A stretch of 64,000 bases of DNA, from sequence record MH791409.1. One strand, written 5' to 3'. The position numbers were made by a program, and so were the translations under genes. The notes beneath the pieces are model-generated. The model saw only the letters and a program-made list of their open reading frames with translations. It was not told the origin of the DNA and did no database searches. How positions within the stretch are numbered: the first letter of the stretch is position 1; the number at the start of each line of letters is the position of its first letter. This DNA comes from Escherichia phage EcWhh-1. Positions 2,778 through 18,633 of the stretch are shown here, piece after piece.

Positions 2778-3036
2778 ATTCGAATCGAATAGTAGAGTTT
2801 TTAAACAGTAATCCTGAGCACACGGTACCCTTAACAGTTTTACCTGTAGGACCTACAGCAATGAATCCTGTACGTTGGAAGTCATCTTCAGAACATCCAA
2901 ACAAGCTATAACCTGTGATTTGGACCTGATCGAACCCGTTTGCATTCAAAACTTTAACAGCATTATCAGCATCAGTACAACCAACCAACGAAACTGCTAG
3001 TACAAGAGCCGCAATAGAACGATTAACATATTTCAT
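2776..3036 (-). CDS. predicted lipoprotein, 86 aa
   Basis: Signal peptide plus lipobox: MKYVNRSIAALVLAVSLVG|C. Confidence 0.6.
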   Translation of the reverse strand: MKYVNRSIAALVLAVSLVGCTDADNAVKVLNANGFDQVQITGYSLFGCSEDDFQRTGFIAVGPTGKTVKGTVCSGLLFKNSTIRFE

Positions 3037-3042
3037 AATTTC

Positions 3043-3219
3043 TCACTTAGTTAGCAGGTCATAGAACCCGCCGTTAACATGTTTAGGAGCTGAAACTAGC
3101 CGAACAGCCGGCCGATGGCAATCAGGGCAAACATCATTATCTCTTTCAGAGATTTTCTTGATTTTTTCGTATTCTTTTGCACAGTCTTCGGATTGGCATT
3201 TGTAATCATAAAGTGGCAT
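3043..3219 (-). CDS. FmdB-like CxxC...CxxC zinc-ribbon protein, 58 aa
   Basis: Below track cutoff. MPLYDYKCQSEDCAKEYEK...CPDCHRPAVRL. AAGGAA SD. ATG at 3219 follows the upstream stop (3221-3223). Confidence 0.55.
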   Translation of the reverse strand: MPLYDYKCQSEDCAKEYEKIKKISERDNDVCPDCHRPAVRLVSAPKHVNGGFYDLLTK

Positions 3220-3220
3220 A

Positions 3221-3658
3221 TTATTCCTTAAAGTGCGCTTTCAGCATCTGGTAAACAGTCCAGGCTTCAGAATTATTAGAGATAGTGATTTTAGTCAAAG
3301 GGAAATCACTCGGTTCAGATGGGGCTGCATCTTCAGACTGGTCTTCGTCTTCAGAAAAACCATCTTCGGCCCATTCGTCTTCACTGTCAACTACAACCAT
3401 TTCCGTAAAGAATTTACGCTCGCTTGGATATAAAACCATATCAATGTTATCACCATAAGCCAAGTCCACGTTCATCACATAACCTGCCGCTAATCTAACA
3501 GGGCAAAACCCTTCAGCATTGACAATAATATCGGCTAAGCTAGAATTATCAGGATTCCTAATATTATGGGCATTCAGCTTACGGAATTCAGCTTCTGCAG
3601 CGTCATCTTTAAAATAGTACCATTTACCTTTTTCAAATTCGAGTTCTTGATTAAGCAT
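3221..3658 (-). CDS. hypothetical acidic protein, 145 aa
   Basis: Start moved to ATG 3658 (GGAAGGAAAC SD; ATGCTTAA overlap with the upstream stop). Acidic tract SEDEWAEDGFSEDEDQSEDAAPSE. Confidence 0.55.
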   Translation of the reverse strand: MLNQELEFEKGKWYYFKDDAAEAEFRKLNAHNIRNPDNSSLADIIVNAEGFCPVRLAAGYVMNVDLAYGDNIDMVLYPSERKFFTEMVVVDSEDEWAEDGFSEDEDQSEDAAPSEPSDFPLTKITISNNSEAWTVYQMLKAHFKE

Positions 3659-14661: not shown

Positions 14662-14848
14662 TTACGAAAATAGCTTTGTCACCGTTGGCGTCAGTGACTT
14701 CGTACGTATCTTCGTGGTAAAGTGGGATAATCCAGGTCACACCATCATCAGCAATAACATGGATAGCTTCTTGGTCTTTTGATACGATTTCATATTCTTC
14801 GAACAACTCGAATACAGAAATCTTAGAGCCCGTACACATTGCACTCAT
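14657..14848 (-). CDS. hypothetical protein, 63 aa
   Basis: AAGGGAAC SD. Acidic. Confidence 0.5.
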   Translation of the reverse strand: MSAMCTGSKISVFELFEEYEIVSKDQEAIHVIADDGVTWIIPLYHEDTYEVTDANGDKAIFVI

Positions 14849-15044
14849 ATTGTTCCCTTCTTTTAATCAGTTGACGATGGGCCTTTTTAAGTTTACGAAG
14901 CTGGCGCTTAGTTGGCCGTGCAACATAAGCTTGAGTAGTTACTCGTCCAAAAACACCATACTTAGGTGAAGGAGAATCAATAAAGACTTCCCACTGGCAG
15001 GAGTAACCATATACCGCTTTAGAGAATTGAGTTAAAACAAACAT
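14823..15044 (-). CDS. RPTKRQ-motif small basic protein, 73 aa
   Basis: ARPTKRQLRKLKKAHR motif shared with 15866-16129 and 40002-40187. Confidence 0.55.
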   Translation of the reverse strand: MFVLTQFSKAVYGYSCQWEVFIDSPSPKYGVFGRVTTQAYVARPTKRQLRKLKKAHRQLIKRREQYECNVYGL

Positions 15045-15045
15045 A

Positions 15046-15486
15046 TCAACCTCGATTCATAAAGGCATTAAAAATCTGGTCGTCAATTGAATAAACCGGA
15101 GCTTCCAGAATTTTCAACAGGCTATTTTTGATATACTTGCTAGGGATATCCATATTAACGCAGTCGTTCAATTCATTGTCCGGGAGGATATCTTTAAATT
15201 CGAATCCTTCAAATTCAACCTTGTCAGGAAAACCATCAGCGAAAAAATAAACCAATTGGTGTATTGTATTGCGCGAAAATAATTTAGACTTAACAGCAAT
15301 AAGTTCTTGCCAGTGGTTTAATTCTCTATTAAGAAGTTTATGGGCAAATACAATCCTATCATCGCTATCAACAATAAAATAACCCAGGTATTGATGGTCG
15401 TCGCTCCAATACATTCTGTATGCCTGGGCATTTGGATTTTTACAACGAAGTTTTTTGATAACCAAATTTCTGTTAATCTTATTCAC
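15046..15486 (-). CDS. hypothetical protein, 146 aa
   Basis: GTG start at 15486 with a GAGGTG SD. Overlaps the sp stop by 8 nt. Confidence 0.5.
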   Translation of the reverse strand: MNKINRNLVIKKLRCKNPNAQAYRMYWSDDHQYLGYFIVDSDDRIVFAHKLLNRELNHWQELIAVKSKLFSRNTIHQLVYFFADGFPDKVEFEGFEFKDILPDNELNDCVNMDIPSKYIKNSLLKILEAPVYSIDDQIFNAFMNRG

Positions 15487-15800: not shown

Positions 15801-15830
15801 ATAGTATCATTACCATAGACCATTGTAAAC
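15801..15830 (-). promoter_or_regulatory. early-type promoter
   Basis: GTTTAC (15830-15825), 18 nt, TACTAT (15806-15801). Confidence 0.55.
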
Positions 15831-15865: not shown

Positions 15866-16129
15866 CTATGATTCCATTATCAGACGACGTTGACGACGGA
15901 GAACCTCACCGCCGACATAAGCACGAAAAGCTTTTTTGCACTGACGAATCTGGCGCTTAGTAGGACGAACAGTAAATTCGTAGAACTCTACAAAATCCAT
16001 TTCACCTTTAGTTTCCTGAGAAAGGACAAGTTCCCAGCGACTGTTAATACGATCTGCATAAATCTTATGCTTACCGAAAGACCGGTCCCAAAAGCCACTT
16101 TTAACAGGCTTCATAATTTGGATATTCAT
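15866..16129 (-). CDS. RPTKRQ-motif small basic protein, 87 aa
   Basis: Start at ATG 16129 (GAGGAA SD). VRPTKRQIRQCKKAFR motif. Confidence 0.55.
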   Translation of the reverse strand: MNIQIMKPVKSGFWDRSFGKHKIYADRINSRWELVLSQETKGEMDFVEFYEFTVRPTKRQIRQCKKAFRAYVGGEVLRRQRRLIMES

Positions 16130-16130
16130 T

Positions 16131-16271
16131 TTATTCCTCGTCTTCATGTTTATGAGCAATTTCTTCGAATTCACTGTCACAGTCTAAACAGGTTGCGTTG
16201 TCCCAAGCATCAAATACCGCTTGCTCTTCACAAACTGAACAGCCGCACACTACACATTCTACTTCTTCCAT
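16131..16271 (-). CDS. Cys-rich zinc-ribbon micro-protein, 46 aa
   Basis: Below cutoff. TAA-ATG junction with the dmd stop. GAGGAA SD. MEEVECVVCGCSVCEEQ...CLDCDSEF. Confidence 0.45.
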   Translation of the reverse strand: MEEVECVVCGCSVCEEQAVFDAWDNATCLDCDSEFEEIAHKHEDEE

Positions 16272-16478
16272 TTAGATTTCCTCAATGCGGGCATCATATT
16301 CAAAAACTTTATTGTCATTAACAAAGGCTTTCACCAGCGCATTATTCACTTCTGCATACTGCACCGTAACCCATTCAATCATATTTTGGTCACTAACATC
16401 CAGCGCAGTTTCTTTGGTAAACATATTACCATTTTCAAACCAACCAATAAACACTACGATCTCTTCTAATTTACGCAT
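16272..16478 (-). CDS. dmd: Dmd antitoxin (inhibitor of RnlA/LsoA RNases)
   Basis: Start at ATG 16478. VVFIGWFENGNMFTKE...VQYAEVNNALVKAFVNDNKV matches T4 Dmd. Lies just downstream of 41 as in T4. Confidence 0.85.
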   Translation of the reverse strand: MRKLEEIVVFIGWFENGNMFTKETALDVSDQNMIEWVTVQYAEVNNALVKAFVNDNKVFEYDARIEEI

Positions 16479-16479
16479 T

Positions 16480-16797
16480 TTAGATTTCCTCACAGAAGGC
16501 CCATTCAGCATGATAAACCGTGGCGCCTTTAGTATCATTTAAACAAACCACATCTACCGGAGCAATTACACGATAAAGACGAGGTTCTCCTCCCACTGAA
16601 CGAGCAGCTCGTCCAGCATAAATCTTAGCCAAACCGATATCTTCAGTAAAGAATACACGATTCAGGTTTTTCTTACGACCAGTTTCAGACAGAACTCCTG
16701 TTTCCTCAGGAGGACAAAGCATATTACCAATATTAGCCACACTACAACTTCCGTGATAATACACTTTATATTCTGCTTTACAGTCGATGGTTTTCAT
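16480..16797 (-). CDS. Arr-like (rifampin-ADP-ribosyltransferase-fold) protein, 105 aa
   Basis: The track start is TTG. ATG 16797 has a GGAG SD. By eye, the blocks YYHGS, RVFFTEDIGLAKIYA and RLYRVIAP align to Arr FYHGT, IYFS and YIYIVEP. Needs a profile search. Confidence 0.4.
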   Translation of the reverse strand: MKTIDCKAEYKVYYHGSCSVANIGNMLCPPEETGVLSETGRKKNLNRVFFTEDIGLAKIYAGRAARSVGGEPRLYRVIAPVDVVCLNDTKGATVYHAEWAFCEEI

Positions 16798-16821: not shown

Positions 16822-16850
16822 ATAGTATCATGCCTATAGGAGATGTAAAC
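16822..16850 (-). promoter_or_regulatory. early-type promoter
   Basis: GTTTAC (16850-16845), 17 nt, TACTAT (16827-16822). Lies immediately downstream of the gene 41 terminator. Confidence 0.6.
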
Positions 16851-16856
16851 CCTTAA

Positions 16857-16881
16857 AACAAAAAAGGAGCCGAAGCTCCTT
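16857..16881 (-). terminator. rho-independent terminator after gene 41
   Basis: AAGGAGC-UUCG-GCUCCUU plus a U-run. The stem includes the TAA stop. Confidence 0.7.
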
Positions 16882-18310
16882 AAAATTTGATAGATGCTGC
16901 TAAATCGTCTAAATCACTTCTATTAACACGCGACTGGCGATTGACCTCTGCTTGGCGGTTCATTTCACCTGTAGCCTCACGAACAGTGTTCACTGGACCT
17001 GGGTTAAAATCGTCTTCAACTTCATACCAACGCTGGTTTCCTTTCTTAACACCAATCTTAAATTTGTTGTAGTAGCTCTTATCACCATAACGAGATTTAA
17101 GCTGCTTAACCATCTGCATACCCATCTGAGCAAACTCTTCTGTCTCGACCACACCTAACATGAAGTCTGCAGTATGTGCAATACCAAAGGATTCAGCGAT
17201 ATCAGCCATATCGATTTCGGCGGCAACGTTCGCACCACGAGTAGTCTGGGCTGCAGTCCACAACAATAATTTCTTCTCTACTGCAAGTCCACGTAGTTCT
17301 TCGGCAACCATCTTAATCAATCCATAACTGTTTTCAGAGAAAACTTTCGTACGGGATGAAGCACAGATAGCCAAGTAGTCGACGATAACGACCTGTGGGA
17401 CAAAGTTTTGTTTGAGCTTGTATTCGTTTAATAATGCACGGAATGTATCGGCATTAGCACCACCAGTAGGGTACTGTTTAATCTTTAAACGACCTAAAGT
17501 AGCAGTTGAACGCCACTTATCCATCTTAGCTTTATATTCAGGCCATGAGACGTGACCATCATCGATATCATCCAGTGATACATCCAGAAGGTTAGCATCG
17601 ATACGCTTAGCACATACTTCCTCTGCCATCTCCATAGAGATATAAAGAACATCATAACCGGATTGAAGGTAATCAGCAGCCAATGAACACAGTCCAAGAG
17701 ACTTACCTACGTTTGTTCCTGCCAACAATACGTTTTCAGTACCAAACTCTGCTCCACCCTTAGTAATCTTGTTCAGAATATTAAGACGGAATGGAACCTT
17801 ACGTGCTTTATCGGAATAACTTTTGAATCGTTCTTCATAGTCATCCATCCAGTCATGACCTAATTCGGAATCGAAACAAATCGATAATGCATCACGCATG
17901 ATATCTGGAATAGCACCAATACCTGGAAGTTTTCTATTTTGTTGCTCAACCGGAAGGTCGGCATTAGTTTGGATTTCAATGATTTTTGAAGTTGCATTAT
18001 ACATCGCTGCTTTCTGAACGTATTTCTCCGTTTCTTTAACCAACCATTCTTGGTCTTCGGGTCCAGCATTCAGTGAGCTTAAAAGCTCTTTAGCTCCTTG
18101 ATGTTCAACTTCTGAAAGCGTACTGTTATCTAATGCAATGCTCAATGCGTTCTTAGAAGGCACTGCATTATATTCATTGACGTGTTTTTTAATTTCTTTG
18201 AAAAGGGTCTTTGCAGGACCCTGGTCAAAATATGAATCATTCATATAAGGCCAGACCTTAGTGAAATAATCACTATTGCCTAGCAGTTGAGCCAAAATAG
18301 TTTCTACCAC
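16880..18310 (-). CDS. 41: replicative DnaB-like helicase
   Basis: Colinear with T4 gp41 (GVNVGKS-type Walker A: GTNVGKSLGLCSLAADY). There is no ATG. GTG 18310 gives MVETIL, aligning with T4 MVEIIL, with a GAGGTGG SD. The track start is GTG 18319. Confidence 0.93.
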   Translation of the reverse strand: MVETILAQLLGNSDYFTKVWPYMNDSYFDQGPAKTLFKEIKKHVNEYNAVPSKNALSIALDNSTLSEVEHQGAKELLSSLNAGPEDQEWLVKETEKYVQKAAMYNATSKIIEIQTNADLPVEQQNRKLPGIGAIPDIMRDALSICFDSELGHDWMDDYEERFKSYSDKARKVPFRLNILNKITKGGAEFGTENVLLAGTNVGKSLGLCSLAADYLQSGYDVLYISMEMAEEVCAKRIDANLLDVSLDDIDDGHVSWPEYKAKMDKWRSTATLGRLKIKQYPTGGANADTFRALLNEYKLKQNFVPQVVIVDYLAICASSRTKVFSENSYGLIKMVAEELRGLAVEKKLLLWTAAQTTRGANVAAEIDMADIAESFGIAHTADFMLGVVETEEFAQMGMQMVKQLKSRYGDKSYYNKFKIGVKKGNQRWYEVEDDFNPGPVNTVREATGEMNRQAEVNRQSRVNRSDLDDLAASIKF

Positions 18311-18633
18311 TTCCACCACCTCTTAGATTTAATTTTATCCAGTTCTTCTTGTATTTGCATTGTAACACATTTTTCTACATGAAGCGCTAGCTCTTCTTTT
18401 CGGTCTTCGGAAGGTGTTCCGAAATCAACCGACACTTTTCCATCTTTCTCAATAACAATATTCATCACATAAACGATGTGAGCAGTGCCATCGGGTAAAG
18501 TAAGCATAATTTCCTGCTTAACAGAACCCATTGACTTACGGATTATATCTAATGATTTCTCATAATAACGAGGGTCACTAGGACCCTCTTCGGTATCTTT
18601 AACAAAATTATCTAAATCAGATAAATCAGTCAT
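18304..18633 (-). CDS. 40: gp40-position protein (head vertex assembly chaperone slot), 109 aa
   Basis: Lies between uvsX and 41 as in T4. Overlaps both neighbours. Confidence 0.5.
   Translation of the reverse strand: MTDLSDLDNFVKDTEEGPSDPRYYEKSLDIIRKSMGSVKQEIMLTLPDGTAHIVYVMNIVIEKDGKVSVDFGTPSEDRKEELALHVEKCVTMQIQEELDKIKSKRWWKW

Follow-up and report, generated by a model that had tools for sequence, protein, structure and literature searches.

A predicted minimal ADP-ribosyltransferase related to Arr is encoded upstream of dmd in a Dhakavirus and is widespread among phages

What is the small gene that lies between gene 41 and the antitoxin gene dmd in some T4-like phages, and what might it do for them? 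The question is raised by a stretch of 64,000 nucleotides (referred to here as the window) of Escherichia phage EcWhh-1 (sequence record MH791409.1), which carries a 68-aa open reading frame (ORF) and, immediately upstream of it, a 105-aa ORF (MKTIDCKAEYKVYYHGS...AFCEEI). An initial annotation, made from the letters alone, took the shorter product for a homologue of Dmd, which inhibits the RnlA/LsoA toxins in T4. For the longer one it proposed the fold of Arr, the rifampin ADP-ribosyltransferase (ART), and a second anti-defence or host-takeover activity. Phage UP19, which has the same four genes of this locus annotated, is a Dhakavirus (JS98-like, Straboviridae) and is 98% identical to the window over this stretch; on this ground we assign the window phage to the same genus of T4-like coliphages.

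The 105-aa ORF is a real gene under strong purifying selection, and one that is better conserved than the replicative helicase. Searches with tblastn found homologues of its product in 609 of 50,697 phage records, with hosts that include Escherichia, Klebsiella, Acinetobacter, Aeromonas, Enterobacter, Shigella, Cronobacter, Vibrio and Citrobacter, and the protein matches PHROG 2110 from end to end (E=1.5e-60). The ratio of nonsynonymous to synonymous substitution rates (dN/dS) is 0.09-0.12, the value against phage RB69 being 0.12; together with the 609 records, this excludes a chance ORF. Identity to the RB69 counterpart, ORF040c, is 89%, which exceeds the values for the gp41 helicase (69%) and for Dmd (67%), and the dN of 0.26 against homologues from Aeromonas, Acinetobacter and Klebsiella phages is about that of gp41 between two coliphage genera. 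A search of 72,556 plasmids found essentially no member of the family, and PADLOC made no call for either this protein or Dmd. Net charge and isoelectric point vary widely across the family, which leaves an argument for nucleic-acid binding from charge with no support. We also observed that the dS of the gene against RB69 (positions 3001-3315 of the RB69 stretch) is 0.73, whereas that of flanking gp41 is about 2 and that of dmd is saturated. This suggests either a fairly recent lateral exchange between the Dhakavirus and Mosigvirus lineages or an added constraint on codons.

The structure predicted for the protein is that of an ART. An AlphaFold2 model built with 38 homologues (mean predicted local distance difference test score 89.5, predicted template modelling score 0.79) has the split beta-sheet of the ART fold and ARTs as its top structural neighbours. 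ParT, RES and DarT are among the structural matches, and the NAD lobe of Tpt1 is matched over 75 residues (9ld3_A, 179 residues). In the BFVD viral library, matches were limited to the protein's own family and one phage protein named rifampin ART.

Sensitive profile searches connect the family to Arr, and the homology of the window protein to Arr is supported transitively, since relatives found with the family profile pass the threshold of the Pfam Arr-ms family (PF12120). An exhaustive HMMER scan with this profile yielded 244 cluster representatives; at least 13 of the scanned relatives exceed the Arr-ms gathering score, at 26-38 bits, and 21 of the 43 members of our broad alignment match PF12120 at E<=0.01. 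When the profile of the broad alignment was run against 177,635 PDB sequences, only Arr-ms (E=0.003) and Arr-2 (E=0.011) were retrieved, so that Arr (PDB 2HW2, 9IAF, 9IBA) is the sole family matched by profile among proteins of known structure. A profile of close homologues only, which is too narrow, matched no PDB sequence at E<=10. Even in a plain tblastn search, one family member matched an annotated rifampin ART on a Euzebya megaplasmid with 34% identity over 90% of the domain. Judged from these comparisons and from the model, the 105-aa protein is a genuine minimal ART-fold protein with a core of about 95 residues, related to Arr yet not an Arr. The Arr-like ART fold put forward in the initial annotation is thus supported by the model, by the link from family profile to Arr and by the relatives that pass Arr-ms.

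At the residue level, the hidden Markov model (HMM) alignment pairs H15-G16-S17 of the phage protein with H19-G20-T21 of Arr, E38-x-G-R41 with E40-x-G-R43, V-F49-F-T51 with I-Y49-I-T51, and LYRVIAP with IFIVEPE. The blocks that the two families have in common are HG[TS], PP/P, E-x-G-R, [VI]-[FY]-x-[TS], a helix with A...[YW], G-G and [VI][YF]xVxP. The blocks that had been lined up by eye (YYHGS; RVFFT...IYAGRAA; LYRVIAP) are the same as those that HMMER aligns with Arr-ms (HGT; IYIT...AAVWGAELAA; IFIVEP). The H-Y-[ST] core that had been read from them is imperfect: the position of Arr Y49 is occupied by Phe in 99 of the 101 family domains over which conservation was counted, and by Tyr in two. 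Across the broad family, residues H15, G16, [TS]17, P29, P30, T33, E38, R41, V48, F49, T51, A57, Y60, A61, G69, G70, G91 and A100 show no variation or almost none. The NAD-binding motifs of the fold are therefore retained, as H15-G16-S17, F49-F50-T51 and Y60 are all invariant or nearly invariant in the 101 domains. The invariant E-x-G-R loop is an obvious candidate for a role in catalysis or substrate binding.

Comparison with characterized ARTs indicates what this protein is not. The functional residues of Arr are H19 and Y49, which mutagenesis has identified as NAD-binding, and the catalytic D84 (of the DPN motif), along with C-terminal rifampin-binding motifs (PMC6092378). Arr has about 140 residues as opposed to the 105 of the phage protein, which carries Phe in place of Y49, has no D84/DPN and lacks the C-terminal rifampin-binding region (M[RK][DE]xL and others); only residues 13-82 of the 143 in Arr are aligned, and the phage protein ends at its residue 105. 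Arr is found in resistance cassettes, whereas the phage family is found in virulent phages and in polyvalent proteins, and its substrate almost certainly differs from that of Arr. Unlike Tpt1/KptA (PDB 9LD3, 7KW9), the phage protein has no N-terminal RNA-binding lobe with the catalytic Arg-His-Arg-Arg, which means that it corresponds to the NAD lobe of Tpt1 only; it does not match the Pfam Tpt1 family (PTS_2-RNA) even at E<=10. No sequence relationship was detectable to AcrIF11, the phage anti-CRISPR ADP-ribosyltransferase (PDB 6KYF). T4 Alt, ModA and ModB and the ART-PolyVal domain (PF18760) are also phage ARTs, used from the outset of infection, but they belong to other ART clades (R-S-E, H-Y-D). 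A Mod-type gene is present elsewhere in this phage, according to the annotation of UP19.

Neither the assignment to the ART fold nor the adjacency to Dmd is new as a prediction, as both are found in the literature and in some GenBank annotations. Iyer et al. (2022, Viruses 14:1977, PMC9503650) described a predicted ART paired with Dmd in Escherichia, Shigella and Salmonella phages, read the pair as a toxin-antitoxin system, and placed this Dmd-linked "p0068" ART in the macromolecule-modifying H-Y-[EDQ] clade. The hosts, the adjacency to Dmd and the high frequency in phages all fit the 105-aa family; matched by this description only, the "p0068" family is very probably the same as ours. The placement differs, in that our searches find Arr and Tpt1 nearest to the 105-aa protein. 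Some GenBank homologues are named "putative ADP-ribosyl transferase" or "rifampin ADP-ribosyl transferase". A survey of the literature, which included RB69ORF040c and Arr-like phage proteins, found no experimental study of any family member.

The gene is the first of a compact series (Table 1), all genes from gene 41 to the tifA-like gene lying on the minus strand of the window. A terminator-like hairpin directly follows the stop codon of gene 41, and an early-type promoter-like site precedes the ART gene. The ART and dmd genes are separated by TAA-A-ATG, that is, by one base between stop and start, as had been noted initially and as the coordinates confirm. The junction between dmd and the 46-aa ORF is TAAATG, and TAA-A-ATG recurs between the 46-aa and 87-aa ORFs (16133-16127); the tight spacing of ART and dmd is generic for this operon and not special. 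The ORF list also gave longer alternatives, one of 109 aa that begins with a TTG and one of 88 aa that begins at an ATG farther upstream; the starts of the 105-aa and 68-aa ORFs are supported by the UP19 annotation, by the position of the Pfam Dmd match and by a GAGGAAA ribosome-binding site. An element of the form GTTTAC...TG.TA...T is found not only here but also upstream of dmd in a T4-type phage and upstream of RB69 ORF040c. Because this common motif precedes all three genes, we place ART as the first cistron of a probably early operon (ART, dmd, 46-aa ORF, tifA-like gene) in Dhaka- and Mosigviruses. In T4, dmd and tifA are driven by an early promoter, and the dmd-tifA-adfA region of T4-like phages has been named the "anti-TA island" (Srikant et al. 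2022), TA standing for toxin-antitoxin.

Table 1. Features of the ART-dmd locus in the window, in order of transcription, with the flanking repeat at the end.
Feature	Position	Strand	Remark
Gene 41 (DnaB-like helicase)	16880-18319	-	Upstream of the ART-dmd operon
Terminator-like hairpin AAGGAGC-TTCG-GCTCCTT with T-run	16854..16881 (hairpin 16881-16864)	-	Directly after the gene 41 stop; found by scan
Early-type promoter-like site: TTTACA, 16-nt spacer, TACTAT, TG extended -10	16822..16849	-	Heads the ART-dmd operon; found by scan
105-aa Arr/Tpt1-related ART-fold protein (PHROG 2110; RB69 ORF040c homologue)	16480..16797	-	Stop included; coding 16797 to 16483, stop 16480-16482
dmd, 68-aa Dmd antitoxin homologue	16272..16478	-	Stop included; coding 16478 to 16275, stop 16272-16274
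46-aa Cys-rich ORF (PHROG 13952, no assigned function)	16131..16271	-	Third operon gene; coding 16271-16134
87-aa DUF7279 protein, TifA (T4 gp61.4, ToxN inhibitor) homologue	15866..16129	-	Fourth operon gene; coding 16129-15869
Second early-type promoter-like site: TTTACA, 17-nt spacer, TACTAT, TG	15801-15829	-	Upstream of the spackle gene
146-aa ORF in the T4 gp61.2/AdfA position	15046-15486	-	Weak Pfam AdfA match, C-terminus only, E=0.007, below threshold
Second DUF7279 gene	14823-15044	-	Paralogue of the 15866-16129 gene
13-nt direct repeat GAGGAAATCTAAA, copy 1	16479..16491	-	ART last codons and stop; dmd ribosome-binding site
13-nt direct repeat GAGGAAATCTAAA, copy 2	16271..16283	-	dmd last codons and stop

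The downstream partner is Dmd, as proposed at the outset: with Pfam Dmd (PF17587) the 68-aa protein scores 72.2 bits (E=4.6e-20; gathering cut-off 27), and it also matches the Dmd family of PHROG, at 7.6e-32. Its identity is 67% to the Dmd of RB69 and 57% to that of the T4 type, and its gene sits in the position after gene 41 that annotated relatives confirm. In RB69, too, ORF040c is directly upstream of dmd. The initial annotation had given the upstream gene as absent from T4, and this proved correct. A concatenated ART and Dmd query aligned with the T4 genome MT984581 through its Dmd half only, with no ART match, and in a T4-type genome gene 41 is followed directly by dmd with no gene between them.

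Within the genus, dmd has changed behind a constant ART gene. We compared the window (16272-16797) with the corresponding locus (1501-2013) of another Dhakavirus, Salmonella phage vB_SalD_ABTNLS3 (ABTNLS3 below). The two ART proteins are 100% identical and their genes about 96% identical at the DNA level, but the Dmd proteins share only 53% identity; divergence sets in exactly with the start codon of dmd and ceases about 35 nt short of its stop. Thus, dmd alleles are exchanged as a unit within one phage genus. The dmd ORF is also bracketed by an exact 13-nt direct repeat, GAGGAAATCTAAA, which has only two copies in the 64-kb window (0.13 expected by chance). Both copies span the E-E-I codons and the stop of one gene and supply the ribosome-binding site of the next. 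The bracketing and the ABTNLS3 allele together fit a cassette-like replacement of dmd behind an unchanged ART gene, and the repeat may serve as a recombination boundary for exchange or loss of the dmd cassette.

The same domain, of about 95 residues, is also found far from any T4-like early operon. Among the 150 best of the 244 representatives, 55 have it embedded in proteins of 200-3,924 aa, at the C-terminus, internally or at the N-terminus; it is these relatives, and not the stand-alone window protein, that qualify as polyvalent proteins. Pfam searches of the relatives identified ART-PolyVal as a partner in six clear cases, often directly adjoining, DUF7178 in three and NUDIX in two (P0149, P0195). 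Other partners are LPD23, ddrB-ParB, CHAP, GNAT plus Toprim, and a tape-measure-type N-terminus (PhageMin_Tail), and in P0186 a lambda-type portal is followed by the ART domain and then by a 2H/Acb1-like phosphoesterase. Polyvalent proteins have been argued to enter the cell together with the DNA (Iyer et al. 2017, PMC5512222). Since the domain sits in proteins that are thought to be injected, the gene that stands alone in T4-like phages would encode one version of an effector module which is injected by other phages. An explanation of the polyvalent carriers as proteins of conjugative elements was dropped in view of the near-absence of the family from plasmids. As a separate observation, six proteins (P0135, P0140, P0149, P0182, P0186 and P0195) have the Arr-like domain beside ART-PolyVal, which is a second and unrelated ART, beside NUDIX, or beside the portal and 2H/Acb1-like domains; we found no description of the pairing of Arr-like and ART-PolyVal domains in two papers from the Aravind laboratory (Iyer et al. 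2017, 2022).

The surroundings of the gene vary as well. In Aeromonas phage 44RR2.8t, Acinetobacter phage AbTZA1 and a Klebsiella phage of the genus Slopekvirus, ART is found in other neighbourhoods and is followed by unrelated small genes. Two distant family loci on phage contigs have phage replication genes around ART and no macro, ARH or NADAR partner, so that no gene of antitoxin type there hints at the substrate. In 44RR2.8t and in Klebsiella phage KLB21, a gene for an AsiA-like "decoy of host sigma70" lies about 1 kb downstream of ART and on its strand, which may be a second recurrent ART neighbourhood.

Taken together, these data lead us to favour, with a probability of roughly 0.55, an active NAD+-dependent ART that acts early in infection, independently of Dmd, and on a target that is conserved throughout Gammaproteobacteria, in the service of host takeover or counter-defence. 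The protein would be made from the early-type promoter of the operon, which lies close behind the terminator of gene 41 and within the anti-TA island, and would bind NAD+ through H15-G16-S17, F49/T51 and Y60. In place of the Glu/Asp of strand 5, the E38-x-G-R41 loop, which Arr also has, and R63 would likely take part in catalysis or substrate binding. ADP-ribose would then be moved to the conserved target in the first minutes of infection. We infer the enzymatic activity, its timing, the host target and the anti-defence role, and on these terms the second anti-defence or host-takeover activity suggested by the initial annotation is plausible and is the reading that we prefer.

Several results weigh against this scenario. 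On its own, the window protein matches Pfam Arr-ms at E=0.026 and 15.1 bits, below the 25-bit gathering threshold, and reaches 12.9 bits with the NCBIfam rifampin_ARR equivalog, for which the cut-off is 130. No acidic or amide residue is conserved across the broad family in residues 93-104, the region of strand 5, which in most ARTs carries the catalytic Glu/Asp; E103 is conserved in the T4-like subgroup only and is I/V/L elsewhere. The catalytic D84 of Arr (DPN[VL]) has no counterpart: the HMM alignment ends at Arr residue 82, from which point on no acid is conserved, and within the corresponding stretch V84-D88 of the phage family position 87 holds N/S/Q and only 27% have D at position 88. 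Because both the strand-5 acid and a counterpart of D84 are missing, the predicted activity should not be taken for granted. The degree to which the gene is conserved is unusual for anti-defence genes, which are usually patchy and fast-evolving, and could point to a housekeeping-type role in phage development. Finally, the anti-defence neighbourhood is seen only in some genera, and in Aeromonas, Acinetobacter and Klebsiella phages the gene lies elsewhere.

The lack of a strand-5 acid is the pattern of Tpt1-type ARTs; Iyer et al. (2022) link it to the H-H-h clade, and it is compatible with a clade of that type. It brings us to an alternative that we regard as rather unlikely, namely that the enzyme, like Arr and other members of the H-H-h clade, handles small molecules or soluble ADP-ribose: it would ADP-ribosylate an antibiotic-like compound or a nucleotide immune signal, or would make or consume a soluble ADP-ribose derivative. 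Its nearest relatives are Arr, which modifies a hydroxyl of a small molecule, and Tpt1, which uses a phosphate acceptor and releases an ADP-ribose cyclic phosphate, and the H-H-h clade acts in RNA repair, on small molecules and on soluble ADP-ribose derivatives (Iyer et al. 2022). The polyvalent fusions beside NUDIX (P0149, P0195) and 2H/Acb1-like domains (P0186) associate the domain with enzymes that process ADP-ribose or cyclic nucleotides, and a universal small-molecule substrate would account for the extreme conservation across phages of very different hosts. However, both the substrate-binding C-terminal part of Arr and the RNA-binding N-lobe of Tpt1 are missing, the NUDIX and 2H fusions are few, and the H-Y-[EDQ] clade assigned to the Dmd-linked ART by Iyer et al. 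(2022) modifies macromolecules. In a wider form, which we put forward tentatively, an ART of about 95 residues that has the E-x-G-R loop in place of the acid is near-universal in Straboviridae other than T4 and is also delivered within injected polyvalent proteins would ADP-ribosylate a non-protein target, such as the end of an RNA or DNA molecule, a second messenger of the nucleotide type or another small molecule of immunity. A non-protein substrate is a serious alternative in view of the relationship to Arr and Tpt1, of the acid that strand 5 lacks and of the occasional NUDIX/2H fusions.

The missing acid could also mean that the protein no longer catalyses anything and merely binds NAD or ADP-ribose, whether it serves as a sponge or decoy for immune signals made from NAD or attaches to a host factor. 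Phage sponges for signals derived from ADP-ribose do exist (Tad1/Tad2), and the very small size of the protein would suit such a function, as would the absence of a conserved acid at the canonical catalytic position. We nevertheless find a dead binder improbable: H-G-[ST], Y60, E38 and R41 are invariant, a pattern typical of active enzymes, and polyvalent proteins carry the domain alongside enzymatic modules.

The proposal that ART is a toxin with Dmd as its cognate antitoxin, forming a phage-borne type II pair that could serve, for instance, in superinfection exclusion (Iyer et al. 2022), is one to which we likewise give little credence. It has several points in its favour. In 236 phage records the genes lie side by side in the same orientation with a single base between them, T4 Dmd is proven to be a proteinaceous antitoxin, a second, Mod-like ART lies beside Dmd in some Klebsiella phages (Iyer et al. 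2022), and ART domains are often toxins, as the structural matches to ParT, RES and DarT recall. The distribution of the two genes argues otherwise. ART was detected in 609 records, Dmd in 797 and at least one of them in 1153, which by inclusion-exclusion leaves about 253 with both (236 of them adjacent), counts that are approximate because they depend on the sensitivity of tblastn for a small, fast-evolving protein. Hence Dmd is undetected in about 356 of the 609 records that carry ART, and ART is missing from about 544 of the 797 that carry Dmd, T4 included. Nor do the genes co-vary, as the ABTNLS3 pair demonstrates; unrelated genes come after ART in phages of Aeromonas, Acinetobacter and Klebsiella, copies of the domain in polyvalent proteins occur without any Dmd, and the one-base spacing is generic in the operon. 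The phages are virulent, so that a logic of addiction or lysogeny does not apply. The co-occurrence counts, the allele swap in ABTNLS3, the other contexts and the generic spacing thus argue for a common early operon in a recombination-prone accessory region and not for a cognate pair, although an occasional functional link is possible. Adjacency to dmd, being limited to some genera and to genes that do not co-vary, would by itself imply no functional link. A true rifamycin-inactivating Arr that shields the host RNA polymerase during infection is hardly credible, even though Arr is the best sequence match and some homologues bear the name "rifampin ADP-ribosyl transferase" in GenBank, given the equivalog score of 12.9 bits against 130, the alignment confined to Arr residues 13-82 of 143, and the missing D84/DPN and C-terminal rifampin-binding motifs.

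The product of the fourth operon gene matches DUF7279 (PF23945) at 1.5e-16; since the TifA proteins of the T4 type (gp61.4) and of RB69 both match the same family at about 1e-20, we consider it a TifA homologue. The phage has two such TifA-like genes, and the products of both contain the basic motif RPTKRQ[IL]R. Between dmd and the first of them, the 46-aa Cys-rich ORF (MEEVECVVCGCSVCEEQ...CLDCD), which is kept in UP19 and ABTNLS3, looks like a zinc-ribbon mini-protein. The 146-aa ORF in the AdfA position may be a diverged anti-DarT factor. Spackle and primase genes follow in this region. The promoter-like site on the spackle side is nearly identical to the one before the ART gene.

The absence of the gene from the model phage T4 may explain why it has been overlooked. 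The phyletic distribution and the co-variation data contradict the only published functional idea that we found, that of a toxin-antitoxin pair with Dmd. ART surpasses the replicative helicase in conservation across phages that infect Escherichia, Klebsiella, Acinetobacter and Aeromonas and is a reasonable target for experiments; RB69, which has a homologue, is amenable to genetics. Should its target prove not to be a protein, this would be a new enzymatic chemistry of counter-defence that T4 happens to lack. In any case, identification of the substrate would add a fourth class of ART in T-even-type phages beside Alt, ModA and ModB, and could reveal a new host-takeover or anti-defence reaction.

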